Shown one piece after another: positions 7,712 to 53,631 of a stretch of 61,511 bases of DNA (positions within the stretch are counted from its first letter, which is position 1; every line of letters starts with the position of its first letter). The notes beneath the pieces were generated by a model that searched no databases, had not been told where the DNA came from, and saw nothing but the letters and a program-made list of their open reading frames with translations. The position numbers were made by a program, and so were the translations under genes. The DNA is taken from contig JAXLZV010000003.1 of assembly GCA_046350755.1 (NCBI GenBank), positions 1 through 61,511 on the forward strand, in the 5' to 3' direction. Source of the stretch: Candidatus Saccharimonadota bacterium. Its GTDB lineage: Bacteria > Patescibacteriota > Saccharimonadia > CAILAD01 > GCA-016700035.

Positions 7712-7744
7712 AGTAGAAGTGGCTTTGGCCTGTATAATGTAGAC

Positions 7745-13302: not shown

Positions 13303-13314
13303 ACGTAAGCTTGA

Positions 13315-14214: not shown

Positions 14215-14288
14215 TCTTGAACTAGTATACCGACTTTTTAGGCTTTACGCACTTGGAGTCGAGTAGGGCTATCAGCTATACTGTCCTT

Positions 14289-16472: not shown

Positions 16473-16512
16473 ACTTTTATTGACAAACAGAAGATTATTT
16501 AAAGGAGGTATG

Positions 16513-17766: not shown

Positions 17767-17853
17767 CAAGAGTAAATATGGGGATTGGTTGCTGTTCTGC
17801 AGCGAGCAAGATGTGTGTTTCTAGCAAAAAGAGTTCATCAACGGGAGGTAATT

Positions 17854-23142: not shown

Positions 23143-23213
23143 AGATAATTGACTAAATGACAATATTATGATATATGTAATCATTACTGTACCTTCGATA
23201 TAAGGAGTTCGTT

Positions 23214-23747: not shown

Positions 23748-23767
23748 TCTCGGTCATCTCATTCTCA

Positions 23768-23806
23768 AGTCGGGGCGCTTCGTACGCTCCGACTCTTTCT
23801 TTTTTA
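23768..23806 (+). terminator. Hairpin plus U-tract after the orphan gene
   Basis: AGTCGGGGCG-CTTCGTA-CGCTCCGACT followed by CTTTCTTTTTT. Confidence 0.7.
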
Positions 23807-23834
23807 TCGATACAAACCTGATATAATGATCGGT

Positions 23835-24392: not shown

Positions 24393-24440
24393 CGACGTTT
24401 TTCAGTCCGTCCTCAGAAAATATCAGCTATAATACTGGTA

Positions 24441-31447: not shown

Positions 31448-33007
31448 ATGAATCCTGAATCCACCCCATCTAAATACTGGCTAGCCCAACTCCTTGACCT
31501 GATTACTGAACGCAAGTCAGCCGGTCGAGTTGTTGTGGCCTCAGGCATTACCCCGTCGGGGCCGTATCATGTCGGGCATTCGCGCGAGATTTTGACGGCC
31601 GAGGCAATCCGCCGTGGTCTTGAGACGCGTGGGCGTGAGGCGCTTCATATTCATAATGTCGATGATTTTGACGCCCTAAGAAAGCGCTACGATTATCTAC
31701 CGGAGCGCTTTGAGACTGAGGTTGGCAAGCCGGTTTATCTCGTGCCTTCACCGACTGATGATGGTTTGAGCTATGCGGATCACTTTTTTAACAGTTATGC
31801 GGCAGCTGCTGAGAAGTTAGCGATTCCTATGGAGATTTGGCGCTCGCACGAGGAATATCAGCGCGGGGTATTTGCCGACGCAATTGTGACCGCTTTAGAG
31901 CGTCGGGATGATATCGCCCGGCTGCTACAATTGATCTCCAGCCGTGAAGTGCCTGCGGACTGGCAGCCGGTGCAGGTTCTCGATGTGACGACCAGTAGCT
32001 TGCGAACCGCCGAGTTTTTACGTTTCGATGCAAGTAGTCGGTCGGTTGAATATCGGGCCGGAGATGGTTCGGTGCATCAGGCCGATATCACAGCTGGACA
32101 GGTTAAGCTCGATTGGCGAGTTGATTGGCCAGCACGTTGGGCCATTCTCGGGGTAGATGTCGAAGGTTTCGGCAAAGAGCATGCCACGAAGGGTGGTAGC
32201 TATGATACGGGAGCGGCGATAGTGCGAGAAATATTCCAGGCTGAGCCACCGATTCCTGTACCCTTTAATCCCATCCATCTGCACGGTGAGACGAAAAAGA
32301 TGAGCTCTTCTTTAGGTAACCTGATCACGATTGAAGATGCCCTCGAGGTTATTCCTCCCGACATTCTGCGCTATTTTGTGTTTAAGAGTTTGCCGAATAA
32401 AGTCCTGAGTTTCGACCCGGGCTTGGGTATGGCGCAGCTGATTGATGAGTATGCGGCTACTGAGACGGCGGCTCAGGCTGGAGAGCCGGCCGAGTTTGCG
32501 GAAGCATGGGCAGTATCGGTCCTGGATGCCGCACACGCGACGGTTTCGACGGTACCTTTCACCCATCTAGCGACGGTATATCAGACGGCTCGAGGTGATG
32601 TCGGGCGGGTACTCAGCTTGCTGCGGGGAACTCATCCGGGGGCGGTTGATACACAAGCTAGCGTGATTGAACGCGAGCTTGTGTATCTCGAGCGCTGGCT
32701 GCAGCAATTTGCTCCCGACTCAATCAAATTTGAAATTCAAGATGCACTGCCTGCTTGCGAGCTTGATAGTGACGAGCAACGTTACGGCGACGAGCTGGCC
32801 AATCGGCTCGAGCAGACAGCTTGGGAGGGTGAAGCGCTACAGGTGGTTATTTTTGCGACTGCTCAGGCGCAAGGATTAGCACCGCGGACTGCCTTCAAGA
32901 CGCTCTATCGACTGTTTCTTGATCGTGAGGCTGGTCCTAAGCTGGGGCCATTTCTGGCTAGTCTTGAGCCAGAATTTGTGATTCGGCGCATCCGTCGACT
33001 TGGCTAG
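31448..33007 (+). CDS. lysS: Lysine--tRNA ligase, class I
   Basis: SGITPSGPYHVGH (HIGH-like), KLDWRVDWPARW, GKEHATKGGS, KMSSSLGN, GPKLGPF. Confidence 0.95.
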   Translation: MNPESTPSKYWLAQLLDLITERKSAGRVVVASGITPSGPYHVGHSREILTAEAIRRGLETRGREALHIHNVDDFDALRKRYDYLPERFETEVGKPVYLVPSPTDDGLSYADHFFNSYAAAAEKLAIPMEIWRSHEEYQRGVFADAIVTALERRDDIARLLQLISSREVPADWQPVQVLDVTTSSLRTAEFLRFDASSRSVEYRAGDGSVHQADITAGQVKLDWRVDWPARWAILGVDVEGFGKEHATKGGSYDTGAAIVREIFQAEPPIPVPFNPIHLHGETKKMSSSLGNLITIEDALEVIPPDILRYFVFKSLPNKVLSFDPGLGMAQLIDEYAATETAAQAGEPAEFAEAWAVSVLDAAHATVSTVPFTHLATVYQTARGDVGRVLSLLRGTHPGAVDTQASVIERELVYLERWLQQFAPDSIKFEIQDALPACELDSDEQRYGDELANRLEQTAWEGEALQVVIFATAQAQGLAPRTAFKTLYRLFLDREAGPKLGPFLASLEPEFVIRRIRRLG

Positions 33008-33025
33008 AGCTGGTATACTAGAAGT

Positions 33026-34252
33026 ATGATAAATTTACAGTTTCTACGCGAGAATCCTGATGTGGTTCGTGAATCAATCTTGCGTCGTGGTATGAAGGTC
33101 GATCTTGATCGATGGTTAGTTCTTGATGCGCGCCGGGCTGAACTGATTCCTGAAGTCGAGGCGGCACGGTCAAAGTTTAAGCTCAAGGGTAAGCCGAACC
33201 CCGAAGAGTTAGAAGCATTACAGATAGCCAAGACTCAGTTGGCCGAGCATGAAGAAGAGCTGAGTTATGTTGAGGCCGAGTGGCAGCGCTTACTCGAGGA
33301 TTTACCGAATATCATTGCCGACGGTACGCCGGACGGAGGCGAGGAAGCGAATCGCGAAGAGCGCAAAGGTGGTGTCCAGCCGAGCTTTGACTTTCAACCA
33401 AAGGATCATCTGGAGCTCAATGACCAGTTGAGATTTGTAGATTTTGAGTCAGGCGCAAAAGTAGCCGGTAGCCGTTTCTACTATTTGCGCGGCCCAGGAG
33501 TGAGACTTTGGGACGCCATACTGACCTTAGCTAAGCAGGTACTCACTGAGCATGGTTTTGAGCTACTGTATGTCCCGCATATGGTGAATAGCCGGGTAGC
33601 TGCCGGGACCGGATTTTTGCCGCGTGGGGAAGAGCGCCAAATCTACAAAACTGAAGATGTCGATTTGAATCTTATTGCCACGGCCGAGCTACCATTGACC
33701 GGCCTCTATATGGACTCGGAAGTAGACGTCACAGAGCCGACTAAGTTGGCAGCAGTGAGCCCGTGCTACCGGATGGAAGCCGGCACGTATGGTAAGTTTT
33801 CAAAGGGTCTCTATCGAGTGCATCAGTTTGAAAAGCTCGAGATGTATGTCTATGCGCAGCCGGGGCAGGGCGAGTCGATTCTGGAGCAGATTTTGGCGGT
33901 TGAGGAGGAGCTCTGTGAGCGACTGGAGATCCCTTATCGTGTCGTTCGTATCGCTGCCGGTGATCTGTCGGCACCAGCTTATAAAAAATACGACGTCGAG
34001 TATTGGAGTCCGGTGGATCAGAGCTATAAAGAGCTGACGAGCTGTAGTGATTGCACTGATTATCAGGCGCGACGCCTGAATGTTCGCGCTCGGGCCGAGG
34101 ATGGCACTTTGACCTATCCTCATACGCTGAATGGCACTGCCGTCACCTCGAGTCGTACGCTCATCGCGATTCTTGAGAATCATCAGACGGCTGAGGGTCG
34201 CGTGAAGTTACCAGCCGCATTAGCCGAAATTTATGGAGGAGAATTTTTATGA
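33026..34252 (+). CDS. serS: Serine--tRNA ligase
   Basis: N-terminal coiled arm, LIATAELP, YRMEAG..GLYRVHQFEK, ELTSCSDCTDYQARRL, HTLNGT. Confidence 0.97.
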   Translation: MINLQFLRENPDVVRESILRRGMKVDLDRWLVLDARRAELIPEVEAARSKFKLKGKPNPEELEALQIAKTQLAEHEEELSYVEAEWQRLLEDLPNIIADGTPDGGEEANREERKGGVQPSFDFQPKDHLELNDQLRFVDFESGAKVAGSRFYYLRGPGVRLWDAILTLAKQVLTEHGFELLYVPHMVNSRVAAGTGFLPRGEERQIYKTEDVDLNLIATAELPLTGLYMDSEVDVTEPTKLAAVSPCYRMEAGTYGKFSKGLYRVHQFEKLEMYVYAQPGQGESILEQILAVEEELCERLEIPYRVVRIAAGDLSAPAYKKYDVEYWSPVDQSYKELTSCSDCTDYQARRLNVRARAEDGTLTYPHTLNGTAVTSSRTLIAILENHQTAEGRVKLPAALAEIYGGEFL

Positions 34253-34691: not shown

Positions 34692-35111
34692 ATGGCACTT
34701 GTACGAGCTACTTGTGATAGTTGTGGTGATGTCGAGCTCAAGTCTCACGACATCTGGACGAATCGCATTACCGATGGAGCAGTCACGATCCTGCGTCAGT
34801 ATGGCTTCCAATGCCCGGCTTGCCGCCAGTTCACTTTGCGGCCAGCTGATGAGCATGTCATCAGTGTTCTCCGTGCGACCGGCGTGGTGATGCGCGAGAT
34901 TGATGCGCGGTCAGTTTGGCCGACCGGTGTCGACCTGGCAGCTAGCCCGTTCAATCATGATGATTTGCTCGAATTCCATCGCCGACTGTGGGGGAGTTTT
35001 GAGAATTATCCCCCCCATAACTCTCCGGTCATGGATGAGGCTGCCGCCGATTTGGATTCGATAGCACTCAAGCGTGGCTTGGCTCGGATTCGGAGAGCCT
35101 TTGTTAGCTAG
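34692..35111 (+). CDS. Hypothetical zinc-ribbon protein (CxxC...CxxC)
   Basis: RATCDSCGDVEL...FQCPAC...HDDLLEFH; TTGACG-N17-TATATT promoter, AGGAG SD. Confidence 0.8.
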   Translation: MALVRATCDSCGDVELKSHDIWTNRITDGAVTILRQYGFQCPACRQFTLRPADEHVISVLRATGVVMREIDARSVWPTGVDLAASPFNHDDLLEFHRRLWGSFENYPPHNSPVMDEAAADLDSIALKRGLARIRRAFVS

Positions 35112-35162: not shown

Positions 35163-35186
35163 TATCTGGTATAATAATCAGGTTAT

Positions 35187-37811
35187 ATGGCAAATCTTTT
35201 TCAGAAAATTTTTGGTGATCCCAATGAGCGCGAGGTAAAAAAAGCTCGCGTGCGGGTTGAGCGTATCAACGCTCTAGAAGCCGAGATCAAAGCACTATCT
35301 GATAAGGACCTCAAGGCTGAGACCGCAACACTCAAGGCCGAACTTTCAGCCGGTAAGAAGCTTGATGACGTACTTGAGCGCGCTTTTGCAGTTGTCCGCG
35401 AAACTAGTCGACGCGTCCTGAAAATGCGTCATTTTGACGTTCAGCTGATCGGTGGGATCGTGTTGCATGAAGGTAAGATCGCCGAAATGAAAACCGGTGA
35501 AGGTAAGACACTAGTTGCCACTGCCCCGGTTTACCTCAATGCCCTAACAGGCAATGGGGTGCACGTGATTAGTGTGAATGATTACCTAGTACGTCGTGAT
35601 GCCGGCTGGATGGCGCAAATATACCATTTTCTTGGCTTGACAACTGGTATTATTACTCATGAATCGGCGTTTATTTATGATCCTACGTATGTCAATGAGG
35701 AGCATACTGATGTCCGGCTGCGTCACCTGAAGCCAGTGACGCGTCGCGAGGCGTACCAAGCTGACATCACCTACGGGACAAATAATGAGTTTGGCTTTGA
35801 TTACCTGCGCGACAACATGGTGCAGGACATTGATCAAATGGTCCAACGCGAGTTATCGTTTGCGATAGTCGACGAAGTTGACTCAATTCTGATTGACGAA
35901 GCCCGTACGCCGCTGATTATTTCGCAGCCCCATGCTAAGTCGACCGACCGCTACTATACGTTTGCCAAGATTGCGAAGAGCCTGGTGCCGGGCGAGGATT
36001 ACGAGCTGGACGAGAAGCAAAAAGCCGTTAGTATCTCGGAAGACGGCATTACAAAGATTGAGAAAGCCCTCGGTGTAGATAACGTCTATGAAGCGGGTCG
36101 TATCGAGGATGTACATCATATTGAATCGGCTTTGAAGGCTGAGGCGGTTTTTCTCAAAGATCGTGATTATGTTGTGACGCCCGACGGCGAGATCGTTATT
36201 GTTGATGAGTTTACCGGTCGTCTCCTACCGGGTCGTCGCTATAGCGAGGGTTTGCACCAGGCAATTGAGGCAAAGGAAGGCGTACAAATTCAGCAAGAGA
36301 GTCAGACGCTGGCAACGATCTCGTTTCAAAATCTCTTCCGACTTTACACTAAGCTAGCCGGTATGACGGGTACCGCCGCCACTGAAGCTGAGGAATTTGG
36401 CAAAATTTATAAACTCGAAGTAACTACCATCCCGACTCATCAGCCGATGATTCGGCAGGATTTGCCAGATCGCGTGTATAAGACACTGAAAGGTAAGTTT
36501 ACGGCCGTGGTGGAAGATGTGCGCGAGCGCCATGAGAAGGGCCAGCCAGTGCTGTTGGGAACCGTTTCAATCGAGAAAAATGAGTTGCTCTCTCGTATGC
36601 TTACCCAAGCCGGAGTCAAACACACCGTCTTAAATGCCAAGAATAATGAAGCTGAGGCCGACATTGTTGCGGCGGCGGGTCAAAAAGGTGCCGTCACCTT
36701 AGCGACTAACATCGCCGGTCGTGGTACGGACATTGTGCTGGGTGAAGGTGTGACCGAAGTTGGTGGCCTGCATGTGATTGGTACAGAACGTCATGAGAGC
36801 CGTCGAATCGACAATCAGCTGCGAGGTCGGGCAGGACGACAGGGCGATCCAGGATCGAGCCAATTCTACGTATCGATGGAAGACGATCTGATGCGTATCT
36901 TTGGGAGTGAGCGGTTGAGCTCGATGATGGACAGCTTAGGTTTGCCGGAAGACACGCCGATTGAGAATAGTATGGTGAGTCGGTCGCTCGAATCAGCTCA
37001 GAAGAAGGTCGAAGGGCACAACTTCGATACCCGTAAACACTTGGTCGATTATGACGACGTCATGAACCAGCACCGCGAGATTATTTACGCCCGTCGTCGA
37101 GCGATTCTCAAACAAGATTCGTTGAAGGATGATCTTATGCCACTGTTTGAGGCCGAATTCCGGGGTGCTATCACCGCTGCCACCGACGTCCAGACCGAAC
37201 ACTTAGATCTGGATAAACTGGCAGATCAGATTCGAACCGTCATCCCGCTCGATAGAGATTGGGTGAAGCAGCAAGACCGACGCGATGCTGATCATCTGGT
37301 GGATAGGTTTATGAAGCAGGCTGAGGAGATGTACCGCCAGCGCACGATGGAGTTTGGCGATGATGGCATGATGGTGATCGAGCGCCTGGTGAGCCTCAAG
37401 ACGATTGATTCGGCTTGGCTCGAGCACCTTGAGGCGATGGATCACCTCCGTGACGGCATTGGTCTGCGGGGCTATGGTCAGCGTGATCCATTGGTTGAAT
37501 ATAAGCAGGAAGCATTCCGAATGTTTGGTATGCTTCAGGCACGGATTGATAGTGAAATCGTTCATACTCTCTTTAAGGTGAAACTCGAGCTGAATGCTCC
37601 GAGTGAAGCGCCGATTGAGACCGAAATAACGCGCGGTGCTGATCGAGCGATTGCCTCCGGACCGAGTGAGTCAGGGGCAATTGAGACTGAGAAAGCGGTT
37701 GCTAAGGCTAAGCGTCAAGCCGAACGTTCTGGCCATGAGGCGGGTCCGATTCATCGGGTTGGTAGTCAGTCGGTCAAGAAAAAGATGAAGAAAAAGAAAA
37801 AGCGCCGCTAA
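35187..37811 (+). CDS. secA: Preprotein translocase ATPase SecA
   Basis: [49 protein letters not shown]. Confidence 0.98.
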
Positions 37812-37831
37812 AGCTGGTTTCGTAACGTATG

Positions 37832-37859
37832 AATATCCTCCAACTGGAGGATATTTTTG
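37832..37859 (+). terminator. Intrinsic terminator of secA
   Basis: AATATCCTCC-AACT-GGAGGATATT followed by TTT. Confidence 0.8.
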
Positions 37860-37884
37860 TGTGCTATCTGGTATCATAAGGGGA

Positions 37885-40683
37885 ATGAATAGTGAAGCAC
37901 CACGCATTGATCAGGATTTTCCACCAGCCGCCGGCGAGGCCGCTCGACAACTCAGAAAAACATTAGCCGAGATTGCACTGGTCAAGATGCAGCTTGAGTC
38001 TGCCCTTAAGAAAGAACGCAATCCGGCTCGACGCGAGCAAGTGGCGGCCAGTACCGAAGCCAAGCTGACCGAGCTGAACCAGGCGAGACAAGACGCTTTG
38101 GTAGCCATGCGTGAAGGGCTGGAGGAAGTACCCGAGCATGCGTCCCCAGAAGTGCCTCGTGATCAGGTGGGCATAGAGCTCCCCGCGACTGAGGATCCCT
38201 ACAGGCTGGCTGGTCAGCCGCTACCGCGCATCGTGCAGACTCTCCAAGCGACGAAGGGTTGGGCGGGAGTTGAAAATCGCATTAATCGTCACTATGGCTC
38301 GTCCGGCACCGGTATAACCGCTGAGGATTACGTTCAAGAGCTGGCTCGCCAGATACAATCGGGTATGCGGCCGCTCGATGGCCAGATATGGCAAGATGTA
38401 TACGATCGATATGATAGCCAGGGGCAGGTAATTGCAGAGCCACAGCCGGACTTGCCGTCAGTAAGCGTAAGCGGTTATGATAAGCACGATACACAACCTA
38501 GGAGTGACGGAATGCCCAACCCAGAACACAACCCATCAGAGCCGCCGGCTCAAAATCATCAGGAGGCGGTGGCTGATGATCTTGAGGAAATCTTAGCTCA
38601 GCAGGGTGGCTACCAGCCGCGGTATGAGGCTCATGTGCCGCGCAGTCCACTCGAGCAAGCCCATCAGCCGGAAGCTTCGGCTAGTCAATCACGTGGTTAT
38701 AACGCACGAGCTACGGAATTTGCTCGTCAACGACCCGAATCGCAACAAGCTGTGCCCCGAGCTACGGCAGAGCCAGAAGCTCAACCTGCCGCTGAGCGCG
38801 TCACGGCGGCTGAAACTGAGGCTTTCGAGCGTTCGAGTACAGCCGAGTTTGGCGGTCAGTCGTTTGAACGGGGTGATCGGATAGTTTATGAATCTGATTC
38901 AGGGCGGATAGCCGAGTACTATGTCTTATGTAACTCGTTTGGTGATCCTCCGGGCCTCGTTGTTCAATCGACCACTAATGAGTCGATGGTGTTTGCTATC
39001 GGTGGTGATACTGAAGCCGGACGGGTCCGTCGAGTCCTCGGTGCCCCTGGCGAAGACGAGCCAGGTCCACCGAGTGGCGGTGGTGCTGGTCCGGGTGAAG
39101 GTGAACCAGGCGAAGGCCCCGGTGAACGTCGACGGCCGGGTGGAGAGCAATTTGTCCCAGAAAATCTACTCGAGAGAATTCCGCGCATACCAAATCGCGA
39201 GGAGATGCTCGCCGCGGGTGATGTGATGCGCGGGATGCTGGACCAACGGATTCAGGACGTTGCCCAGGCCAAAGAGCAGCGCGAGAAGTTATTTGGTAAG
39301 TTTGGCGATAAGGCGGCCTTGGCTGAAGCGGCCGAGGATTTAGGCGCAGCTTATAATCAATATCTTGAGAATTGGGCGTCACAACTAGCAACCTATCGCA
39401 ATATCGGCAATGAAATTTCGACGACGAAATCAGGTTTTCAAAACGAGCTTCAGTCGCGGCGCGAATCTCTCGAACGCCTTCAGGCCGATCAAGATCTCGA
39501 TCCCGCAATCAAGGAAGATCGTATTCGCGTTAAGCAAGCTGCGATTCGCGATACGGAAGCTGCTATCGACGAGTGTGACACTCGTCTAGCTCAGTTTGAG
39601 GAGTCGAAGGAGCTGATTGAGCGGGTCACGCGTGAAGTTGAGATTCAGATCACCCTCGAACTCGCTCAAGCCCGTACGAAGATAGAAACTGCCCAGGCCG
39701 AGCTCAAGGAAGGCAATAAGGTTCAGCGTGCGATCAAATGGGCGAAGGACGCTTGGCGTAAACATCCAAAGACTCGTCTAGCAATAACCGTAGGTCTTGG
39801 TGTCGCGTCGTTAGCTACTGGTTTCGCTGGTTTCGCCGTGGCGGCGGCTGGGATGCGCGCGGTTGGCGCTGGAGTTGGTACCGAGCTAGGTGTGAATACT
39901 CGAAGGCAGTGGTGGGCCAATCGCAGTGAGTCCAAGGGTGCCGAAAAAGCTTGGGGCCAGACTGATGAAGCTACTCGCACGGAAGCGGAAGCGGTTGGTG
40001 GCTGGGTCGGTGAAACTACCCCTGATCTGAGTCAGCAGGCCAAAACTGACCTTGAACTTTTCCAGCAGCGCCATGGTCGCGAAATCTACAGCGAAGATAT
40101 GATTTTGAAGGTCTTGCGGGGCGACCCAGACGCCTCGGCTGAGGTTGCAACGATGTTGGTGAGTGATCAGATCGGTGAAAAGGGGCGTGTCCAGAAGGAT
40201 GCCTCATCAAATCGACGGGCCAAAGTCGCGGCGGTAGCCGCCGCGACAACCGTTGGGCTGTTTGGGCTCTATCGCTCAGTAGGTTCGTCGGGACGCGCTA
40301 CGGACAGCATGGAGAGTAATGTTCGGCCCAAACCACCAACGGCTGATTATGATCCGAATGCCGACCGCTGGTATGGAATGGCCAAAGTGAATCCAAATAC
40401 GATGAACGCTGACTGGGAGGCTATGCACGCGGGAGCCACTCCGGCAGCTGAAGCCGCCGCCCACGTCGGTGAAGGCGCTCTCGACACCGCCTACAATTCG
40501 GCTTCGGAAGGCATGAATCTTGCCCAATTACGTCAACTCAATCAGATCATTGGTACTGGAGCGCGAACTATTGGCAATGATCGCGTGGCCGAGCTGATGC
40601 CAGGAATCGCCCGCCAGGTCGTCAACGGACGCTCAACGGATCAGATCTTAAGTCTATATGGCATACCGCCAACGGCAGCCTAA
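37885..40683 (+). CDS. Large orphan protein (about 930 aa) with coiled coils and Gly/Ala-rich hydrophobic segments
   Basis: Long uninterrupted ORF; TATCAT 7 nt before ATG 37885; heptad-rich region then LAITVGLGVASLATGFAGFAVAAAG. Confidence 0.85.
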   Translation: MNSEAPRIDQDFPPAAGEAARQLRKTLAEIALVKMQLESALKKERNPARREQVAASTEAKLTELNQARQDALVAMREGLEEVPEHASPEVPRDQVGIELPATEDPYRLAGQPLPRIVQTLQATKGWAGVENRINRHYGSSGTGITAEDYVQELARQIQSGMRPLDGQIWQDVYDRYDSQGQVIAEPQPDLPSVSVSGYDKHDTQPRSDGMPNPEHNPSEPPAQNHQEAVADDLEEILAQQGGYQPRYEAHVPRSPLEQAHQPEASASQSRGYNARATEFARQRPESQQAVPRATAEPEAQPAAERVTAAETEAFERSSTAEFGGQSFERGDRIVYESDSGRIAEYYVLCNSFGDPPGLVVQSTTNESMVFAIGGDTEAGRVRRVLGAPGEDEPGPPSGGGAGPGEGEPGEGPGERRRPGGEQFVPENLLERIPRIPNREEMLAAGDVMRGMLDQRIQDVAQAKEQREKLFGKFGDKAALAEAAEDLGAAYNQYLENWASQLATYRNIGNEISTTKSGFQNELQSRRESLERLQADQDLDPAIKEDRIRVKQAAIRDTEAAIDECDTRLAQFEESKELIERVTREVEIQITLELAQARTKIETAQAELKEGNKVQRAIKWAKDAWRKHPKTRLAITVGLGVASLATGFAGFAVAAAGMRAVGAGVGTELGVNTRRQWWANRSESKGAEKAWGQTDEATRTEAEAVGGWVGETTPDLSQQAKTDLELFQQRHGREIYSEDMILKVLRGDPDASAEVATMLVSDQIGEKGRVQKDASSNRRAKVAAVAAATTVGLFGLYRSVGSSGRATDSMESNVRPKPPTADYDPNADRWYGMAKVNPNTMNADWEAMHAGATPAAEAAAHVGEGALDTAYNSASEGMNLAQLRQLNQIIGTGARTIGNDRVAELMPGIARQVVNGRSTDQILSLYGIPPTAA

Positions 40684-40698
40684 TAATAAGGAGTAATT

Positions 40699-41040
40699 AT
40701 GGATACCACTCAACCTCAAACCCAAGCTGATATTTTCACACGTCTAGGCATGGCTTCGGCCAGCGATGAACAGAAGCAAAAGCTGGCTGAACAACTCGCC
40801 GAGCTCACGATGGTGCGCGTTATGGAGAAAGTCTCGAGTACCATCCCCGAAGAGACGATGGACGAAATTGAGGCCCTGATTGATAAGGGAGCCGATGATC
40901 AGGTAGAGGATCGACTGCGTCAGGCGATTCCTGGCTATGATGAACTAGTCCAAACGACCGCCAGTGAAGTGGCCGATCAGATCGTAGCTGACCAGCAAGC
41001 GGTGCTGGCTAAAGTGCGCTCTCAGACGACCTCGGCCTAG
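40699..41040 (+). CDS. Small acidic helical protein, DUF5663-like
   Basis: DIFTRLGMAS.SDEQKQKLAEQL...RVMEKVS...IPGYDELV pattern recalled from CPR DUF5663 proteins; AAGGAG SD. Confidence 0.7.
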   Translation: MDTTQPQTQADIFTRLGMASASDEQKQKLAEQLAELTMVRVMEKVSSTIPEETMDEIEALIDKGADDQVEDRLRQAIPGYDELVQTTASEVADQIVADQQAVLAKVRSQTTSA

Positions 41041-41130
41041 TCAGTAACCAGTAAGTTAGATTGACTTTACCCTGAAAAAATGGTAAAGTTTTTCTGTTTT
41101 TCCTGCACCTTCCAACCTTAGGAGGCCCAT

Positions 41131-42324
41131 ATGGGCAGTACTCATTCAGCCAAGAAAGGCATCACTGATCCCGCCGATCTCACAGCCGCGCTGGCGGCCG
41201 CGCAGGTGAGCAGCAATGGCGCCAGCCCACCGGTCACCGCCAACCAGACTGCCTCAAGCTTGTCTGGAGGAGACGAGCCGGCCGTCATGGCTACCGAAGC
41301 AGTCGCTCCCCGGAAGCGGGTTGGCGATGTCATTGATGCCTTGCATGTTGCCGGCATTCTGCCGCCGGATGATGACGGCATTGGTTTTATCCAGTCGATC
41401 TACCGCACGTTGAATCTGATCAAGTTGGACCAACCACTGCCCAAGATCAACCGCGGTACCTTGGTTCGGCCAGCCATCATCACTCACGTCGATCTGCTAC
41501 TGGCACAGGGCCACGCTTCGGCCACAACGCCAGTCGCGACGGCTGCATCTTCAGCTCAGACTCCGCGGATCAAGCAGCACGCTCAGTTTGCGGAGTTGAC
41601 ACCAGAGCTGCAGCAGCTGGTGCTGCTGGCTGATGAGGCGCGTGGCCGCCATCAGATGGTGGTCGCCCTGCAAGGTAAGCCTGGAGATGACAATGATGAG
41701 CTCTATCATCAGGAGTCTGCCGACGCGTTTCAGGCGGTTTCTGATCAGATGCGAGCAATTGCGAGCATGATCCCCGGTATCACGCCGCGCTACTTGGCTA
41801 GCTGGTTGCGACGAGTCGGTGTGTATTTCGAAGCAGTTATCAAGTCTGACGAGGACTTGGTGACAGCCGTGAGCACGCTGCGCTGGCCGAAGGCACGACC
41901 TGAAGCAACAGCGGTACCGGTATCGACGCCCCCATCTGCGTCAGCTCCGGCTGAGGTGGAACCTGCAGTTGCTGAACCAAGCGACCGAGCCTTCGTGGTG
42001 ACGTCGACTGGTGGGGTCACCGAGCCTGCGCGTCATCGAGTGACGAGCGGGGCGAGGCGAGTAGCAGCCAGTCAGCCGACAGTCGAGACGCAAGCGGTGA
42101 GCCAGGAATCAGCTGATTCCGAGCAAGAGTTGGTTGAGCCGACTGCCAGTGAATTCACCGACCAGCAGCTCATTGAGCTGGTGGGCGGCGATGAGGTCGA
42201 TCAACTCTTCGACGCGATCTACCAACGCTATGGCTGGGACTCTCCTGACATGGACGCAGTTGAGGCCGAAGTACGGTCTCTGTTGATTGCTCGAGCCCGC
42301 GAACTGAGTGTGTCGCCGGCGTAA
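41131..42324 (+). CDS. Orphan hypothetical protein with low-complexity linkers
   Basis: 397-aa ORF; TTGACT-N17-TAAAGT promoter, AGGAGG SD, downstream hairpin. Confidence 0.8.
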   Translation: MGSTHSAKKGITDPADLTAALAAAQVSSNGASPPVTANQTASSLSGGDEPAVMATEAVAPRKRVGDVIDALHVAGILPPDDDGIGFIQSIYRTLNLIKLDQPLPKINRGTLVRPAIITHVDLLLAQGHASATTPVATAASSAQTPRIKQHAQFAELTPELQQLVLLADEARGRHQMVVALQGKPGDDNDELYHQESADAFQAVSDQMRAIASMIPGITPRYLASWLRRVGVYFEAVIKSDEDLVTAVSTLRWPKARPEATAVPVSTPPSASAPAEVEPAVAEPSDRAFVVTSTGGVTEPARHRVTSGARRVAASQPTVETQAVSQESADSEQELVEPTASEFTDQQLIELVGGDEVDQLFDAIYQRYGWDSPDMDAVEAEVRSLLIARARELSVSPA

Positions 42325-42330
42325 ACGATC

Positions 42331-42363
42331 GGGGTGGTTTGGATCTATTTCCAAGCCACCCTT
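42331..42363 (+). terminator. Hairpin after the 41131 orphan
   Basis: GGGGTGGTTTGGA-TCTATT-TCCAAGCCACCCT. Confidence 0.6.
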
Positions 42364-42483
42364 ATTCATTGGTGCGCATGTATGGCATAAGTTTATTGAC
42401 AAGCTATAAAAGTATTGCAAAATATACATTTTTATGCTATAGTGCGCGCAGTACCTTCATTCCTCAACAGAAAGGGGATCGGC

Positions 42484-43209
42484 ATGGCCGACCTCACGCA
42501 ACGCAACAACGCCGCTCGCCACCGTGAGCACGATCGCAAGCATCGGCTGCTCAACGAGCAGTACGAGCTGGTCACTGGTCAGGTCACCGACCTCCAGGGA
42601 CGGATCACACGGCTCGAGCAGGCTGGCGCCTCCGATGAGACGCTGGCCGGCATGCGTCAGGAGCTCGAGCGCTTGCTCGGGATCCAGACCAGCTTCGGCA
42701 ATCAGCTGACCGAGTTCTCGACCCAGTTGGCTTCGGTCGACGGTCGCGTCTCGTCACTCGAGCGCTGGAAGCCGCATGTCAACGAGCGGCTCGAAGCCGT
42801 CGAGGTGAGCAGCAATGCCCACGCCACGGCGATCGCTCGGCTGAGTGACGCCAATGGCTGGGTGCCCATCGCTGCCGCCGCGGTGGCTGGTCTCATCACC
42901 TACGTGGTGATCGAGGTCTTCCACGACACCGCCACCCACATCCAGTGGGCTTGGGTGTTGGTCTTGGCCGCGGTGGCTGGCATCGTTGCCAGCTTCTTGG
43001 CCGGTTCGGCGACCAGCCGGGCCTCGGCCTCCAGCCAGGCTTCGGCCACCGTCGGCACTGCGCCGGCTCCGGCCGACCAGGCTCCGGCTGAGCCGCCCAC
43101 GGCGACCGTTCCGGTTGCCGATGCTCAGCCGCCTGCGCCACCCATGCCGGCACCAGTTCCTTCTCGCAGGAACGTCAGTGCCAGTGCGGCCGCTCAGGTC
43201 AACGGCTGA
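42484..43209 (+). CDS. Orphan coiled-coil + 2-TM membrane protein, GC-rich
   Basis: TTGCAA-N17-TATAGT promoter, AAAGGGG SD, ATG 42484; heptads, two TMs, Pro/Ala tail. Confidence 0.8.
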   Translation: MADLTQRNNAARHREHDRKHRLLNEQYELVTGQVTDLQGRITRLEQAGASDETLAGMRQELERLLGIQTSFGNQLTEFSTQLASVDGRVSSLERWKPHVNERLEAVEVSSNAHATAIARLSDANGWVPIAAAAVAGLITYVVIEVFHDTATHIQWAWVLVLAAVAGIVASFLAGSATSRASASSQASATVGTAPAPADQAPAEPPTATVPVADAQPPAPPMPAPVPSRRNVSASAAAQVNG

Positions 43210-43218
43210 TCATCCCTC

Positions 43219-43248
43219 GTGTTTGGGGGTCTTCGGACCCCCAAACAC
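43219..43248 (+). terminator. Perfect 13-bp hairpin with C(UUCG)G loop and no U-tail
   Basis: GTGTTTGGGGGTC-TTCG-GACCCCCAAACAC. Confidence 0.7.
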
Positions 43249-43303
43249 ATCATTCTAGCTTTTGGTATTATTCTGATGACGATTCTTCGCCGTCAGAACC
43301 CGT

Positions 43304-44497
43304 ACCTGAACACCGCCGCAATCCCGCGGCCCGTCCATGAAAGGGGGCCGCCATGCGCGCGCCCAACTCTCCGCAGCAGAAGTTCTTCTTCTCGCTGCTC
43401 GGGGCGGCAGCTCTGCTGCTGATCACCCCAACCCTCTACCATCGTCTGGTGGATGACGACCCGGCTTCGGCCAGTCCCACCACCACGACGACTGCCGCCC
43501 CGGCTCCGGCCGGAACCTGCGGCAGCTCTCCCTGGTTCTACGCCCGGGACACGGAAGGTAACCAGTTCGGTCCCGCCGCTCCGGAAGAGGTGAATGCCGC
43601 CCAGGCGGAGTTCACCAAGCGCCGTTGCGTCGATCCGGCCCTGCTGGTCGCCGACTCGGAGTATCTCTTCAACGAGTTCTCCGATCCGACTGCCCGCGTC
43701 GCCAAGACGCAGGACTTCATCGCCAATCCCGACCACTGGGCCCTCAGTGAGCTGCGCTTCCAGCAGAAGCTCGGGACGGCCACGAAGGTCGAGGTGGCGA
43801 CGATGTCTGGCGGGTACCAGACCATGGACATGGTGGATCGGGATCGTTCGATCCCGGAGATCTACCAGATCCCGGTCGAAGCCGCACCCTTCCGGGTGCT
43901 GCGGTACACCTTCCCCGATGGATCGGTGAAGAACTTCAAGCTCAATTGTGGCTTCCAGCCCGTTGAGCAGTCCTTCCCGCCCAGCGTGCCCGGCAAGGGA
44001 GCTCCTCCGGCGCCCAACCAGCCGGCTGGACCGGTCACACCGTCCCGGCCCGGTGGCCACAGGCCGCCGACGCCGCCGGTGGGACCCACGGTTCCGCCCA
44101 CTCCTGGCAAGTGCGCCAATCAGCAGGGTCAGTACTGTGGTACTCCCGACTCCGGACCGGAATTCGATCCGGTTCAGTCGAACCCGCAGTCGCCCACGCC
44201 GGGCTATGTCCCGGGGAATGCCGAGACGGTGATCAATCAGCAGCAGAACGATGCTGCGATCACTGCTGGAGGTGGCGATCCCTATCGCCCAACCCAGTAC
44301 GGCACCCCCGGTACCGGCACTGGCTCCGGAGTGACGACCCCCTCGGGTCAGACCTCCGGTCCGACCGGCAACACCACTGGTGGGACGGTCGGGGCTTCCA
44401 ACCCCGACAACAACACCAATACGGCTGGCCAGACCAGCTCGGGTACGGTGGCACCGCCTCCGTAACCCATGCCTGATCGCTCTCGCGGTGTTCAGGT
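43304..44497. repeat. 13-bp perfect inverted repeat bracketing the 43353-44465 gene
   Basis: ACCTGAACACCGC (43304-43316) and GCGGTGTTCAGGT (44485-44497). Confidence 0.85.
43353..44465 (+). CDS. Orphan secreted/anchored protein with Cys-containing domain and Pro/Gly/Thr-rich tail, GC-rich
   Basis: N-terminal hydrophobic segment, PTTTTT linker, five Cys, AAAGGGGG SD. Confidence 0.82.
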   Translation: MRAPNSPQQKFFFSLLGAAALLLITPTLYHRLVDDDPASASPTTTTTAAPAPAGTCGSSPWFYARDTEGNQFGPAAPEEVNAAQAEFTKRRCVDPALLVADSEYLFNEFSDPTARVAKTQDFIANPDHWALSELRFQQKLGTATKVEVATMSGGYQTMDMVDRDRSIPEIYQIPVEAAPFRVLRYTFPDGSVKNFKLNCGFQPVEQSFPPSVPGKGAPPAPNQPAGPVTPSRPGGHRPPTPPVGPTVPPTPGKCANQQGQYCGTPDSGPEFDPVQSNPQSPTPGYVPGNAETVINQQQNDAAITAGGGDPYRPTQYGTPGTGTGSGVTTPSGQTSGPTGNTTGGTVGASNPDNNTNTAGQTSSGTVAPPP

Positions 44498-44502
44498 CAA
44501 CA

Positions 44503-44532
44503 GCCCTCGGGGCGCTTCGGCGCTCCGAGGGC
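44503..44532 (+). terminator. 13-bp hairpin with C(UUCG)G loop
   Basis: GCCCTCGGGGCGC-TTCG-GCGCTCCGAGGGC. Confidence 0.7.
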
Positions 44533-44748
44533 AACCTCATTTACTGACCAAAATAAAACCATAAGCAATACCATTGACAAACCACAACAAATCTGATACA
44601 ATACAGCAGTCATTCACACCAGGTGTGGAGTCGCTACTTAACAGCTCAAATAGTCTTCCCAACAGAAGCAAGCAATTCTTGACGAAAGCTTAAAACTATC
44701 CAATAACCATAAGTATTATTCCTCACCAAGTGAGAGAAGGAGCAAGCT

Positions 44749-45912
44749 ATGAAGTTTGTCGCCAAACTCCGCACACTTGCCGCTGCTGCAGCCCTGGTAC
44801 TCGTACCAGCCGCCGCCGCCGCTACTGGCCAAGTTGCGATCGAAGCCCGCACCGCAGTTGCTAACCAAACTGCCGGCGATACGGTCTATCAAAAAGCCGT
44901 AAATGCCAAAACCGACGAAGTCGTAAAAGTCCAAGTCTGGTATCACAACAAAGAAGAGGCTAACTCGAATAAAGTAGCCAATAACCTCAAAGTCAAAATT
45001 GACCTGCCAACTACTACTGGCAAAAGCCAGGTAGTGAAGGGTACGGTCAGCGCCGATAACAGTAATACTGTTGTCGACACCGCTAACGTCAACCTTGCCC
45101 TCGACCAGAGCCGACTCGAGTATATCCCAGGCTCAGCTCAGTGGCGCCACAACACTGGTACCAATGAAGCTCCAAACTGGGTAACCGAGAAGATCAGCGA
45201 CCAAGTCGTTGGTACGGGTATTACTCTTGGTAACGAGAAGCCTTGCTTTAACTTTGAAGCTAACGTAACCGTTCTAGCCCGTGTCAAAACTCCTGCAGTT
45301 TCGATCACGAAGCAGGTTCGGGTGCTTGGCGAAAAAGATTGGAAGACTGAAAACACCGCCAAAGCCGGTGACACGCTCGAGTACTTGATCTCGTTCAAAA
45401 ACGAAGGTAACACTACGCTGAACAACGTTATCATTGCTGATAACATGCCAGCTAACGTCACCTACGTACCAGGTACTACCATGATAAAAAATGGTGCGAA
45501 CCCAAATGGTACTAAGATTAACTCGGACAATATCACCAAAGGTGGCGTGAATGTAGGTAACTACACACCAGGTGCCAACGGTTACGTATGGTTCCAGGCT
45601 AAGATTGACTCAAATCTCAAGCCAGGTAACTACACTTTCAAAAACGTTGGTATCGTGAAGCCTGAAGGTATGGGCGAGTACTTTAACGCCGCTCAGACTA
45701 AGGTTAGCGTGGCCGGTCCTACAACCGTCCCACCAACCACTCCTGTGACTCCAACTACCCCAACCACTCCAACTACCCCTGCCCTTCCGCAGACTGGTGT
45801 TGAAGCTGGTGCAGCTGGCCTCATGGGTACAGGTGCCCTGACCTACGCTGGTTACTTCTACCGGAAGAGCCGCAAGGGTCTGACCGAAGCTCTCAAAAAC
45901 GTTGTTAAGTAA
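44749..45912 (+). CDS. Cell-surface protein with Ig-like DUF11-type domains and LPXTG-like sorting signal
   Basis: Signal peptide; SITKQV...AKAGDTLEYLISFKNEG...IIADNMPANVTYVPGT; LPQTG + hydrophobic stretch + RKSRK; AGAAGGAG SD. Confidence 0.88.
   Translation: MKFVAKLRTLAAAAALVLVPAAAAATGQVAIEARTAVANQTAGDTVYQKAVNAKTDEVVKVQVWYHNKEEANSNKVANNLKVKIDLPTTTGKSQVVKGTVSADNSNTVVDTANVNLALDQSRLEYIPGSAQWRHNTGTNEAPNWVTEKISDQVVGTGITLGNEKPCFNFEANVTVLARVKTPAVSITKQVRVLGEKDWKTENTAKAGDTLEYLISFKNEGNTTLNNVIIADNMPANVTYVPGTTMIKNGANPNGTKINSDNITKGGVNVGNYTPGANGYVWFQAKIDSNLKPGNYTFKNVGIVKPEGMGEYFNAAQTKVSVAGPTTVPPTTPVTPTTPTTPTTPALPQTGVEAGAAGLMGTGALTYAGYFYRKSRKGLTEALKNVVK
45730..45780 (+). repeat. Degenerate 9-bp tandem repeat encoding Pro-Thr-Thr stalk
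   Basis: CCAACCACT/CCAACTACC units giving PPTTPVTPTTPTTPTTP. Confidence 0.8.
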
Positions 45913-45930
45913 CGTTTGAGCGATCACCAC

Positions 45931-45964
45931 AAACTCCCCAAGGGATTTCCCGAGGGGAGTTTTG
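45931..45964 (+). terminator. Intrinsic terminator of the surface-protein gene
   Basis: AAACTCCCC...GGGGAGTTTTT. Confidence 0.75.
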
Positions 45965-46003
45965 GTATCTGGAAAGAGATCTTGCAGGTATAATGAGAAA
46001 CGT

Positions 46004-47086
46004 ATGAAGCCGACGATTGATACATTATCGCGTTTACTCGCCGAAGTCCGCGAGGCCAAAGCCCAGCTCCAGCTCGATGACGAGCGGGGGCGGCTTCAAG
46101 TGCTCGAAGACCAGATTGCCGCTCCAGATTTCTGGAATGATGCGGAAACCGCGCAGAAAATCAGCCAGGACGCCGCTCAGCTCCGGAATTATCTAGCTGA
46201 TTGGGATAAGCTTGAGGACGAGCTGACAACAAATCTAGAGCTAGCGGAGATGTCAGACGAGTCGCAGGCTGATGAATTTACTGAACTCACGACCGATCTG
46301 GAGTCCCGAGTGGCCGCCGCTATGATCACCGTGAAGCTCTCGGGAGCGCATGATAAGCTGCCGGCGATTATGCAGCTGTCAGCGGGAGTTGGCGGTACGG
46401 ATGCCCAGGATTGGGCCGAGATGCTGCTGGCGATGTACACTCGGGCGGCCGAGAAGCTTAGCCTCAAAGCCGAACTCGTTGATATCTCGCGCGGTGAAGA
46501 AGCCGGTATAAAGTCGGCCACCCTTGAGTTCACTGGGCCTTTTGCTTTTGGCAAGCTCAAGAGTGAAAAGGGTGTGCATCGGTTAGTCCGACTGTCGCCA
46601 TTTAATAGCGATAATCTCCGTCAAACCAGTTTTGCCCTGGTGGATGTAGTGCCAGAGATCCCAATGGAAGAAATTGAGCTGGACGAAAAAGACTTGCGGG
46701 TTGATGTCTATCGCTCCGGCGGGCACGGGGGACAGAGCGTCAATACCACTGATTCGGCGGTGCGGATTACGCATCTTCCGACCGGCACCGTTGTAGCGAT
46801 TCAGAATGAACGCTCGCAGTTGAAGAATAAGCAAAAAGCCATGAGTATTTTGGCGGCTCGCTTGGCCGAATTGGCGCGTGAACAGCATCTGGAGTCGGTT
46901 GCGGAATTACGTGGCCAGGTAAAGTCTGCCGATTGGGGTGCCCAAATTCGCTCTTATGTCTTGCACCCCTACCAGAAAGTGAAGGATCACCGCACGGACT
47001 ACGAAACCAGCGATACCGATGGTGTCCTGGCTGGCGAGATCGAACCGTTTATCGAAGCATATCTTACCAAAAATCTGAGTCAATAA
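46004..47086 (+). CDS. prfB: Peptide chain release factor 2 (no programmed frameshift)
   Basis: GVGGTDAQDWAEML, GVHRLVRLSPF (SPF), [27 protein letters not shown]. Confidence 0.97.
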   Translation: MKPTIDTLSRLLAEVREAKAQLQLDDERGRLQVLEDQIAAPDFWNDAETAQKISQDAAQLRNYLADWDKLEDELTTNLELAEMSDESQADEFTELTTDLESRVAAAMITVKLSGAHDKLPAIMQLSAGVGGTDAQDWAEMLLAMYTRAAEKLSLKAELVDISRGEEAGIKSATLEFTGPFAFGKLKSEKGVHRLVRLSPFNSDNLRQTSFALVDVVPEIPMEEIELDEKDLRVDVYRSGGHGGQSVNTTDSAVRITHLPTGTVVAIQNERSQLKNKQKAMSILAARLAELAREQHLESVAELRGQVKSADWGAQIRSYVLHPYQKVKDHRTDYETSDTDGVLAGEIEPFIEAYLTKNLSQ

Positions 47087-52339: not shown

Positions 52340-52410
52340 TCATTCTGAGCACAAACTGAGAGTCGAGACCACTTCCGCCAGATTACGAAAACCGGTACAA
52401 TGGTTTTTAT

Positions 52411-53631
52411 ATGGGTGAGGAAAAAGATCTGTCGAAGTCGCCAGCCAATCCGGCTACTCGTTCGACTCCGACGTTTTCGTTTGGCAAAGTAGTTGCGATT
52501 AGTGCCGCGTTATTAGTCGTCGGCTTAGTCGTCGGCTGGTTTACTGCCCGAGCGTATCCACAATTCACCTTGGCTCAATCGGCTTCACCATTGGAGACTC
52601 AACAGTTTCAAGAGGTTCGATCGATCCTGAAGAATAGTTATGATGGTGATCTAGATCCCGCCAAGCAGGGAGAGGGGGCAATTAGCGGTTACGTTGCGGC
52701 TCTCGGTGACCCTTATACTACCTATCTCAACCCGCAACAGGCAAAAGAGCTGGCCGATGACTTGAAAGGCGAACTGTCGGGTATCGGGGTTGAAGTCGGC
52801 ATCAAGAAAGATCGCTTGACGGTCATATCGCCGATCGATGGTACGCCCGCCGCAAAGGCCGGCTTAAAGTCGGGCGATGTCATAGCCTTGATCGATGGTC
52901 AAGACACCTCGCAAATGACTCTAGATGATGCGGTCAAAAAAATCCGTGGTGAAAAGGGGACCGAGGTAAAACTGACTATTCTGCGCGGTACCGAGTCCCC
53001 AAAAGAGATAATCGTGACGCGTGATACCATCACCGTTTCGAGCGTGAATGTCGAAGTTAAAGATGGCAATGTTGGCTATATACGCTTGCGGCGATTCGGC
53101 GATGATACTGATGAGGCGATTCGTAAAGCCACTGCTGATCTGGCGGCCAAGGGTATCAATAAAATTGTGCTTGATCTGCGAGATAATCCCGGTGGTTATC
53201 TCAACAGTGCGGTGACGGTGACATCTGAGTTCTTGGCTGACGGAACCGTGGTTGAGGAGCGAGGTCGTCATATCGCGACCAAGAAGTTGACCGCCAACCC
53301 GGGTGGCAATCTCACACAAGCTAAGCTCGTCATATTGATTAACGAGGGTTCGGCTTCGGCTTCAGAAATTACGGCTGGTGCCCTTAAGGACAATGGTCGA
53401 GCGATACTGGTTGGCGAGAAGAGTTACGGTAAGGGCAAGGTCCAGGAAGTGAAGGAGTTAAGCGGGGGCGCCCAGCTGAAGGTTACTGTGGCAAGTTGGT
53501 ATACGCCGAATGGTGTGAACATTTCCAAAGAGGGTATTAAGCCAGATATTGAAGTTAAAAACTCGAGCGAAGACTCAAATGCTGGACGTGACCCTCAGCT
53601 TGATCGCGCGCTGCAGGAGGCCAAACAATAA
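52411..53631 (+). CDS. ctpA: Carboxyl-terminal processing protease (S41)
   Basis: LGDPYT, GIGVEV PDZ, LDLRDNPGG, SASASEI, SYGKG. Confidence 0.94.
   Translation: MGEEKDLSKSPANPATRSTPTFSFGKVVAISAALLVVGLVVGWFTARAYPQFTLAQSASPLETQQFQEVRSILKNSYDGDLDPAKQGEGAISGYVAALGDPYTTYLNPQQAKELADDLKGELSGIGVEVGIKKDRLTVISPIDGTPAAKAGLKSGDVIALIDGQDTSQMTLDDAVKKIRGEKGTEVKLTILRGTESPKEIIVTRDTITVSSVNVEVKDGNVGYIRLRRFGDDTDEAIRKATADLAAKGINKIVLDLRDNPGGYLNSAVTVTSEFLADGTVVEERGRHIATKKLTANPGGNLTQAKLVILINEGSASASEITAGALKDNGRAILVGEKSYGKGKVQEVKELSGGAQLKVTVASWYTPNGVNISKEGIKPDIEVKNSSEDSNAGRDPQLDRALQEAKQ

Follow-up and report, generated by a model that had tools for sequence, protein, structure and literature searches.

Between secA and prfB in the stretch analysed here (the window; 61,511 nt, GC ∼0.51), which is a housekeeping stretch of a Saccharibacteria-type genome (Candidate Phyla Radiation, CPR/Patescibacteria), lie six plus-strand genes, A to F (37861–45912). 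We consider it likely that this block is an old, clade-specific envelope or surface locus of single-gene units, which has been diversified by fast divergence and by exchange within the clade. The block would have been present in the ancestor of a family-level Saccharibacteria clade and then inherited in place, with its products under strong diversifying pressure: the N-terminal half of A and the whole of C diverge very fast, separate lineages have had the outer domain of E exchanged for an unrelated type, and alleles would have been passed on by homologous exchange within the clade. The original prediction, made from the window alone, had recognized the same six open reading frames (ORFs), which the ORF list bears out, and had taken the interval for a hotspot that collects independently acquired, individually expressed modules. 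The hotspot model is largely refuted; what is left of it is that clade members trade or replace alleles, and in one case a domain, one cassette at a time, and that gene content varies slightly in more distant genomes.

Gene content and order are conserved in relatives

Relatives were collected by a SecA protein search, which gave a graded series, and by reading contig neighbourhoods; a scan of a genome collection with SecA returned, among the matches listed, distant relatives only (≤58% identity). Among named organisms, the nearest to the window by SecA are Saccharibacteria/Saccharimonadales. Six contigs from other samples, on which SecA is identical, carry the same genes in the same order. 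From there the series runs through L087 (SecA 88% identical), L088 (82%), L089 (80%), L090 (78%), L091 (77%), L092 and L095 (74% each) to L096 (67%), and between secA and prfB these genomes hold a big protein (900–1594 aa), a DUF5663 protein, C-, D- and E-sized genes and a homologue of F. The L087 contig stops after B, leaving only A and B visible, and in L096 C is missing and the rest of the block is present; in L088 and L089, B stands before A. In total, nine related genomes (SecA 67–88% identical) keep the block at this site and in this order. Orthology was supported by tblastn at 29–34% identity for A, 60–65% for B, 34–40% for D, 43–65% for E and 62–82% for F. The same search finds nothing for C in relatives with a SecA identity of 74–88%, and C is recognizable only between close genomes. 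Third codon positions are the least conserved across the relatives, and the plus-strand frames are therefore coding. E lies at this locus in all 12 genomes whose context was read (in L094 the flanks are not visible). The same place and order in relatives argue that the block is ancestral to the family-level clade and was inherited in place.

At greater distance gene content departs slightly from this layout. In L093 (SecA 71%) a Mur ligase is added and the big protein includes a PP2C domain, L094 has an extra 313-aa gene in the block (its short contig shows the block order but not the flanks), and the contig that carries P0143 has a smaller block without the big gene. In more distant Saccharibacteria the secA–prfB interval holds an M16 peptidase and a MurD-like ligase, and no A–F homologue is detectable in that region. 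These differences and the missing C of L096, together with the promoter and terminator of each gene and the outlying composition of D and E, are what speaks for a hotspot capturing unrelated self-contained modules from outside, with gene content that turns over. Against it, relatives ranging from identical SecA to 67% identity share one gene content and one gene order; the families of A and E are restricted to the clade; the excess of GC at third codon positions (GC3) in D and E is common to all orthologues; the window holds no recombinase, tRNA, repeats or attC; and self-contained units with hairpins occur elsewhere in it, for example at 23214–23747. We therefore regard the hotspot as highly improbable. 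The original prediction had proposed comparing this interval in related genomes for gene turnover, and had named as contrary evidence the same genes in the same order with GC3 no different from core genes; the first of these is what the relatives show, and the second is not.

Signs of a mobile element were sought by several routes. Neither the block nor nearly all of the remaining window ORFs gave an integrase or recombinase in Pfam scans, in agreement with the earlier remark that the window holds no integrase, and there was none in the annotated relatives. The whole window is without tRNA genes, the block has no flanking direct repeats beyond short chance matches, and no patchy presence is seen, the block being in every relative examined (SecA 67–100%). 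The composition of D and E deviates strongly, and all orthologues deviate likewise, so that it does not date a transfer. An integron is not indicated either, with no integrase, no attC or repeated site between the cassettes, and cassettes that carry their own conserved promoters. For a diversity-generating retroelement, there is no reverse transcriptase domain, and positions 37–47 kb hold no long direct repeat pair or template/variable repeats; overall, no repeats able to serve as attachment sites, attC or a template/variable pair were found. Mobile DNA does land in the neighbourhood, outside the block: in L093 a transposase (PF02371, weak match) is inserted at 6092–7333 between lysS and serS. 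In L089 a 100-N scaffold gap lies inside A (13051–18002), hence no gene was called there; the frame is otherwise intact and 88% identical to A of L088.

Alleles and one domain depart from the core phylogeny

The pair L092 and L095 illustrates how the block diverges. Their core genes are 80–99% identical (mreB 99%, SecA 94%, pbp 93%), and the corresponding values in the block are 62% for A, 48% for C, 68% for D, 54% for E and 95% for F. Within A, identity per 40-column block is 0–46% in the N-terminal half and 65–92% in the C-terminal half. Within E, the anchor is 69%, the outer domain 16–21% and the C-terminal part 86–98% identical, and the outer domain in L095 is an unrelated second type. L095 has this type in common with L088 and L089 (50% over the whole protein) and with P0139, which belong to a different SecA sub-clade; SecA of L095 and L088 is only 75% identical, and for each of the two a sister genome carries the first type.

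Which genome comes closest to the window depends on the cassette, a pattern that suggests homologous exchange among clade members: A, E and F are nearest to L092, D to L091, and the promoter class between C and D to L090. L087 is the closest genome overall, yet its B is only 55% identical to that of the window. Within the species, the A–B–C segment shows 18–61 differences per kb compared with ∼5 in secA, and the synonymous divergence (dS) of B is 0.29 compared with 0.02 for secA, indicating an imported tract. The within-species ratio of nonsynonymous to synonymous divergence (dN/dS) is 0.03–0.19, with A and C at 0.11–0.19; constraint on these two genes is relaxed relative to core genes. The locus thereby combines the features of a recombining mosaic surface-protein locus, i.e. 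conserved flanks, predicted surface products, and alleles and domains that appear not to follow the core phylogeny.

Four of the six proteins are predicted to be membrane or surface proteins

The expectation that several of the products would be surface or membrane proteins holds for A, D, E and F. The predicted topology comprises one clear transmembrane (TM) segment in A, two in D, an N-terminal anchor in E, and a signal peptide with an LPQTG motif in F. Searches of all six proteins against NCBIfam, PHROGs, PADLOC and PDB sequences gave nothing useful besides DUF11 (F) and DUF5663 (B), and there was no credible match of any of the six to phage or defence families, only marginal sub-threshold ones.

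A is acidic and rich in Ala, Glu and Gly; its centre is a coiled coil, and it has one or more TM segments (the clear one at residues 642–660). It has no match in Pfam, NCBIfam, PHROG or PDB, and its family, with 17 representatives among 1.8 billion proteins, is restricted to the clade; the N-terminal half is hypervariable and the C-terminal half conserved. B is small, acidic and soluble, and matches PF18908 (DUF5663) at 29.5 bits (cutoff 23.7) over profile positions 4–82 of 84. Wherever a relative has the big gene, B accompanies it, and no mention of DUF5663 was found in the literature. C, for which no family matches were found, is the fastest-evolving member of the block, and is soluble, acidic and of low complexity. 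D begins with a coiled coil, which is followed by two TM helices and a tail rich in Ala and Pro.

E comprises, in order, an N-terminal membrane anchor, a Thr-rich linker, an outer domain of ∼150 aa, a Pro-rich linker, a Cys-x7-Cys mini-domain in which both cysteines are invariant, and a Gly/Thr/Ser tail. The outer domain was modelled with a predicted local distance difference test score (pLDDT) >90 and has no significant fold match in the PDB. A protease was considered and rejected, as the best fold match is a staphopain with an E-value of 0.13 and a TM-score of 0.10–0.15, and there is no invariant Cys/His pair. The family of E numbers 26 clusters among 5.8 billion proteins, none annotated and none from other phyla. 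A host-derived origin of E was likewise rejected, since there is no actinobacterial or other outside homologue among the same proteins.

No other gene of the block is as well conserved as F, which has at least 304 homologues and is widespread in Saccharibacteria. It comprises a signal peptide, two Ig-like β-sandwich domains (DUF11 repeat), a Pro/Thr stalk, LPQTG, a hydrophobic segment and a basic tail, and has both ends of an LPXTG sortase substrate (N-terminus MKFVAKLRTLAAAAALVLVPAAAAA...; C-terminus LPQTGVEAGAAGLMGTGALTYAGYFYRKSRK). Across 38 homologues the motif residues L346, T349 and G350 never vary, and P347 is almost invariant. F matches TIGR01451 at 52.1 bits (cutoff 24; 4.7e-14) and PF01345 at 25.4 bits (cutoff 24.6). 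Its model (pLDDT 84) was matched by Foldseek to the Ig-like domains of PrgB, BspA, ACE and CNA with a probability of 1.0 and E-values of 6e-8 to 4e-5.

A persistent codon signature in D and E

The GC3 of D (0.80) and E (0.78) stands out against 0.54 ± 0.05 for 48 other window genes; C is slightly raised (0.63), the values of A (0.51), B (0.56) and F (0.52) are unremarkable, and regional GC peaks at 0.65. The richness of 42484–44465 in C- and G-ending codons, noted in the original prediction, is thus real, but it fails as a mark of recent transfer: orthologues of D and E have a GC3 of 0.65–0.91 in every relative, with neighbours at ∼0.52, and orthologues of A are at or below the core (0.43–0.51). 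Synonymous sites of core genes are saturated, with a third-position identity in secA of ∼0.42 and a dS of at least 1.4 even for the closest pair. A high GC3 kept despite this saturation is therefore maintained gene by gene and is hardly a relic of recent transfer.

A single ancient acquisition of at least C–D–E from a high-GC donor, either an actinobacterial host or a mobile element, would make the high GC3 a remnant of that donor. The GC content of C–E (0.60–0.66, compared with 0.51 for the genome) and the absence of the block from more distant Saccharibacteria fit such an event, and the Pro/Thr/Ala-rich linkers may resemble actinobacterial envelope proteins. We nevertheless find it quite unlikely, because no homologue of E occurs outside the clade among 5.8 billion proteins and because saturated synonymous sites should have erased an unmaintained donor signature, yet GC3 stands at 0.65–0.91 everywhere.

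F has a codon signature unlike both the core genes and D and E. Together with all of its orthologues it avoids G-ending fourfold codons (0.05–0.12) and favours T-ending codons, in some genomes C-ending ones too; this signature may mark very high expression. Between L092 and L095 the dS of D, E and F is 0.56–0.81, below that of core genes, which fits a constraint on synonymous sites. We infer that the GC-ending usage of D and E and the T-rich, G-poor usage of F are kept by selection on synonymous sites. Biased gene conversion was considered as a cause of the high GC3 and fits poorly, because the most variable parts of the block (the N-terminus of A, and C) have ordinary or low GC3. A compositional 'island' without recent transfer calls for caution with GC-based island-finding methods, and persistent gene-specific codon signatures raise the question of synonymous-site selection in very small genomes.

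Each predicted unit has its own promoter, Shine–Dalgarno sequence and terminator

The genes would be transcribed as A+B, C, D, E and F, and every unit would have a promoter, a leader bearing a Shine–Dalgarno (SD) sequence and a terminator of its own. Promoter-like sites are present at five of the seven junctions of the block and strong 3′ hairpins at six of the seven. The gap between A and B is 15 nt, and the two probably share one transcript. The promoter scan recovers 41061–41089, 42415–42443 and 44574–44602; in 34–49 kb it counts 19 promoter-like sites compared with 8.8 ± 2.7 in shuffles (∼2-fold). The promoters listed in the original prediction (these three and 43263–43271) are all present; the site at 41061–41089, however, coincides with a 9-bp hairpin and T-run (41063–41100), and may be the A–B terminator instead of, or besides, a promoter. 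The 3′ hairpins it listed (42331, 43219, 44503 and 45931) are equally real, with a folding free energy (dG) of −24 to −34 kcal/mol, z-scores of −4.4 to −6.4 and none of 200 shuffles equally stable. Two further hairpins were found, one after secA (37831–37856) and one after B (41063–41090, then the T-run).

Strong terminator hairpins are also frequent 3′ of other window genes. Since they are common elsewhere, and since a self-contained orphan stands at 23214–23747, the single-gene layout with a hairpin is the normal form in this genome for genes outside operons, and what stands out is the run of six consecutive units (single genes, or A+B) rather than the hairpins.

The duplex with the anti-SD sequence reaches ≤−7.8 kcal/mol in all six block genes, compared with ≤−6 kcal/mol in 14 of the 48 others (hypergeometric p ∼0.0015), and the earlier contrast between strong SD sequences in the block and mostly SD-less core genes is upheld. 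A TATAAT-like box 6–12 nt before the start, with no SD, occurs at many core genes including secA and prfB (examples of such starts are 35165–35189, 45985–46006, 7725–7747, 24420–24443, 33005–33028 and 52390–52413), and many core genes probably have leaderless mRNAs. The start of secA, with TATAAT ∼10 nt before its ATG, looks leaderless. For A, the GTG at 37861 is the more likely start, because GGAGG lies 9 nt upstream and gene callers chose this GTG on six same-species contigs; the ATG at 37885 is less likely because AAGGGG lies only 2 nt before it. The 3′ arm of the secA hairpin (37831–37856) holds the GGAGG of A, and on transcripts that read through from secA the translation of A might be poor as long as this hairpin stays closed.

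Relatives keep the promoter elements of D, E and F, and all of them have hairpins 3′ of C, D and E, with sequences that differ; the hairpin after E keeps its structure. These conserved promoters, with the SD sequences and terminators, support the view that the units are individually expressed. The promoter class of D is common to the window and L090, and other relatives carry another class. Relatives have at E a conserved extended −10 and leader hairpin; the E leader (43272–43310) contains the conserved hairpin TCTGATGACG...CGCCGTCAGA and a conserved box, GAACCCGTACC. The promoter of F, TTGACA-17-TGATAnAAT, is present in nine of nine genomes examined. It is followed by a second conserved box, TTGAC...CATAAGTA, and by two hairpins that covary. 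This leader (44603–44748) recurs in L088–L092 and L094–L096, with the second box as TTGAC...TAAsCATAAGTA and with hairpins whose sequences differ between genomes and whose pairing is kept in each. It could represent tandem promoters or a cis-regulatory RNA; an Rfam search of 34–48.5 kb gave nothing credible and no match to the F leader.

A probable role at the cell surface

Cultured Saccharibacteria are epibiotic, living attached to other bacteria, and their host-contacting proteins are little known. Given this lifestyle, the predicted topology of the products and the adhesin-like fold of F, we infer a cell-surface role, for example in host–bacterium contact or in evasion of phage or host defences. 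A bolder version would make the block a host-recognition kit, in which E is a receptor-binding protein of modular build, its outer domain being exchanged between lineages in the way that phages exchange theirs, and in which E, the hypervariable N-terminus of A and C together determine to which host a lineage attaches; the GC-ending codons of D and E would then reflect a dedicated translational or mRNA-level control. We hold this version to be unlikely.

Several observations weigh against an old surface locus diversified by exchange. Gene-wide positive selection is not shown, the within-species dN/dS of A and C being only 0.11–0.19. The incongruence rests on ∼12 genomes, and in five of these genomes the pairing of SecA with E is indirect; for P0026–P0134 there is direct confirmation. 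Strongly uneven rates might account for part of the incongruence, but not for the outer-domain replacement. No sortase was found in the 61.5-kb window, and five of the six proteins have no characterized relative. Separate promoters and terminators argue against strict co-regulation, and the genes may not work together.

The six products might also build one physical apparatus, for example one that spans the envelope or attaches to a host, a possibility that is compatible with an old clade-specific surface locus; a functional link, besides history, would then preserve the gene order. The order kept over deep divergence despite separate promoters, the predicted mix of cytoplasmic proteins (B, C), membrane proteins (A, D, E) and a wall-anchored one (F), and the position among cell-envelope genes (mreBCD-pbp2 upstream; murA-ftsEX and the CHAP hydrolases downstream) all suggest it. 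On the other hand, F is found across Saccharibacteria, yet distant members have no detectable A–F in the secA–prfB region, and C (L096) or A (the P0143 contig) can be missing. A single apparatus is thus conceivable but doubtful.

Among known systems, the block most resembles Gram-positive mosaic surface-protein loci at fixed sites, such as pneumococcal pspA/pspC and the streptococcal M-like proteins, which exchange by homologous recombination. Shared features are the conserved flanks and position, surface products, alleles off the species tree, and a domain replaced while anchor and stalk are kept. Unlike those loci, the block is a row of six different genes, five of them orphan families confined to the clade; its variation is seen between species; and two members carry a persistent GC-rich codon signature. 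F has the domain order and fold of LPXTG adhesins with tandem Ig-like domains (PrgB, the antigen I/II protein BspA, ACE and CNA; DUF11/TIGR01451). In contrast to these, it is only 9–12% identical to solved structures, has no recognizable ligand-binding domain and no sortase nearby, and is not variable. A sortase-assembled pilus locus is not indicated, as neither the window nor any relative has a sortase within the block or next to it. A same-strand run of non-housekeeping genes with locally deviating composition in a housekeeping stretch also recalls genomic islands and integron arrays; the block differs in lacking integrase, tRNA, direct repeats and attC, in having its own promoters and in being conserved throughout the clade.

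No paper describing this locus was found. The closest case in CPR bacteria is a Gracilibacteria (BD1-5) genome with a hypervariable surface-protein gene, in which a PTD repeat array in one gene varies within the population and the product, predicted to be extracellular and N-terminally anchored with extreme local variation, was suggested to have a role in attachment (PMC6851277). Extracellular prediction, N-terminal anchoring and extreme local variation in a CPR bacterium are common to both cases; the present block has no repeat array, and its variation consists of divergence and domain replacement between lineages. The locus is compact and easily located between secA and prfB. It offers concrete candidates for studies of attachment and host range in relatives that can be cultivated, namely clade-specific envelope proteins, one with interchangeable outer domains, and beside them in F a conserved, wall-anchored protein that is probably highly expressed.

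Coordinates of the locus and neighbouring genes

Table 1. Features of the secA–prfB interval and its flanks (window coordinates)
Feature	Coordinates	Strand	Remarks
secA	35187–37811	+	Upstream flank; Pfam domains via identical protein and homologues
Hairpin and T-run 3′ of secA	37831–37856	+	dG −17.9 kcal/mol, z −4.3
Gene A, 940 aa	37861–40683	+	Orphan membrane protein (predicted)
Gene B, 113 aa, DUF5663	40699–41040	+	PF18908 match
Hairpin and T-run 3′ of B, likely A–B terminator	41063–41100	+	Overlaps promoter-like 41061–41089
Gene C, 397 aa	41131–42324	+	Soluble, acidic, low-complexity
Terminator hairpin 3′ of C	42331–42362	+	dG −24.5 kcal/mol, z −4.4
Promoter of D, TTGCAA-17-TGcTATAGT	42415–42443	+	Promoter scan
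Gene D, 241 aa	42484–43209	+	Coiled coil and two TM helices
Terminator-like hairpin 3′ of D	43219–43248	+	13 bp, UUCG loop; dG −26 kcal/mol, z −6.2
Extended −10 promoter of E (TGGTATTAT, 43263–43271), then leader hairpin (43272–43297)	43263–43297	+	
Gene E, 370 aa	43353–44465	+	N-terminal anchor, outer domain
Terminator-like hairpin 3′ of E	44503–44532	+	dG −34 kcal/mol, z −6.4
F promoter P1, TTGACA-17-TGATACAAT (44574–44602), and ∼140-nt leader	44574–44748	+	
Gene F, 387 aa	44749–45912	+	LPQTG sortase-anchored (predicted), Ig-like
Terminator hairpin and T-run 3′ of F	45931–45962	+	
prfB	46004–47086	+	Downstream flank; uninterrupted ORF; looks leaderless

The other genes of the window include ftsZ, nrdR, ileS, ftsW, parAB, prfA, rpsB-tsf-frr, mreBCD-pbp2, greA, lysS, serS, hpf, murA, ftsEX, two CHAP hydrolases and pyrG. 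The downstream flank, prfB, is a single 360-aa ORF without the programmed +1 frameshift site that is common near codon 26 in bacteria. An antisense ORF at 43293–44540 (minus strand, 415 aa), which spans all of E, was not accepted as a gene, since relatives do not conserve it (149 codons in L091), the plus frame varies most at its third positions, and high GC3 is expected to produce such an ORF as a by-product.

Two small ORFs outside the block were also observed. A Cys-containing ORF of 139 aa (34692–35111) between hpf and secA has a weak zinc-finger-like match and its own strong terminator; it is 98–100% identical within the species, has 129 aa in L087, and is absent or different in other relatives. 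The orphan ORF at 23214–23747 (177 aa, Cys/Trp-rich, no Pfam match, GC3 0.67) lies between tsf and frr, in the place usually occupied by pyrH, and within 23150–23830 it is accompanied by a promoter-like site and an SD of its own and by a UUCG hairpin that resembles the terminator of E.

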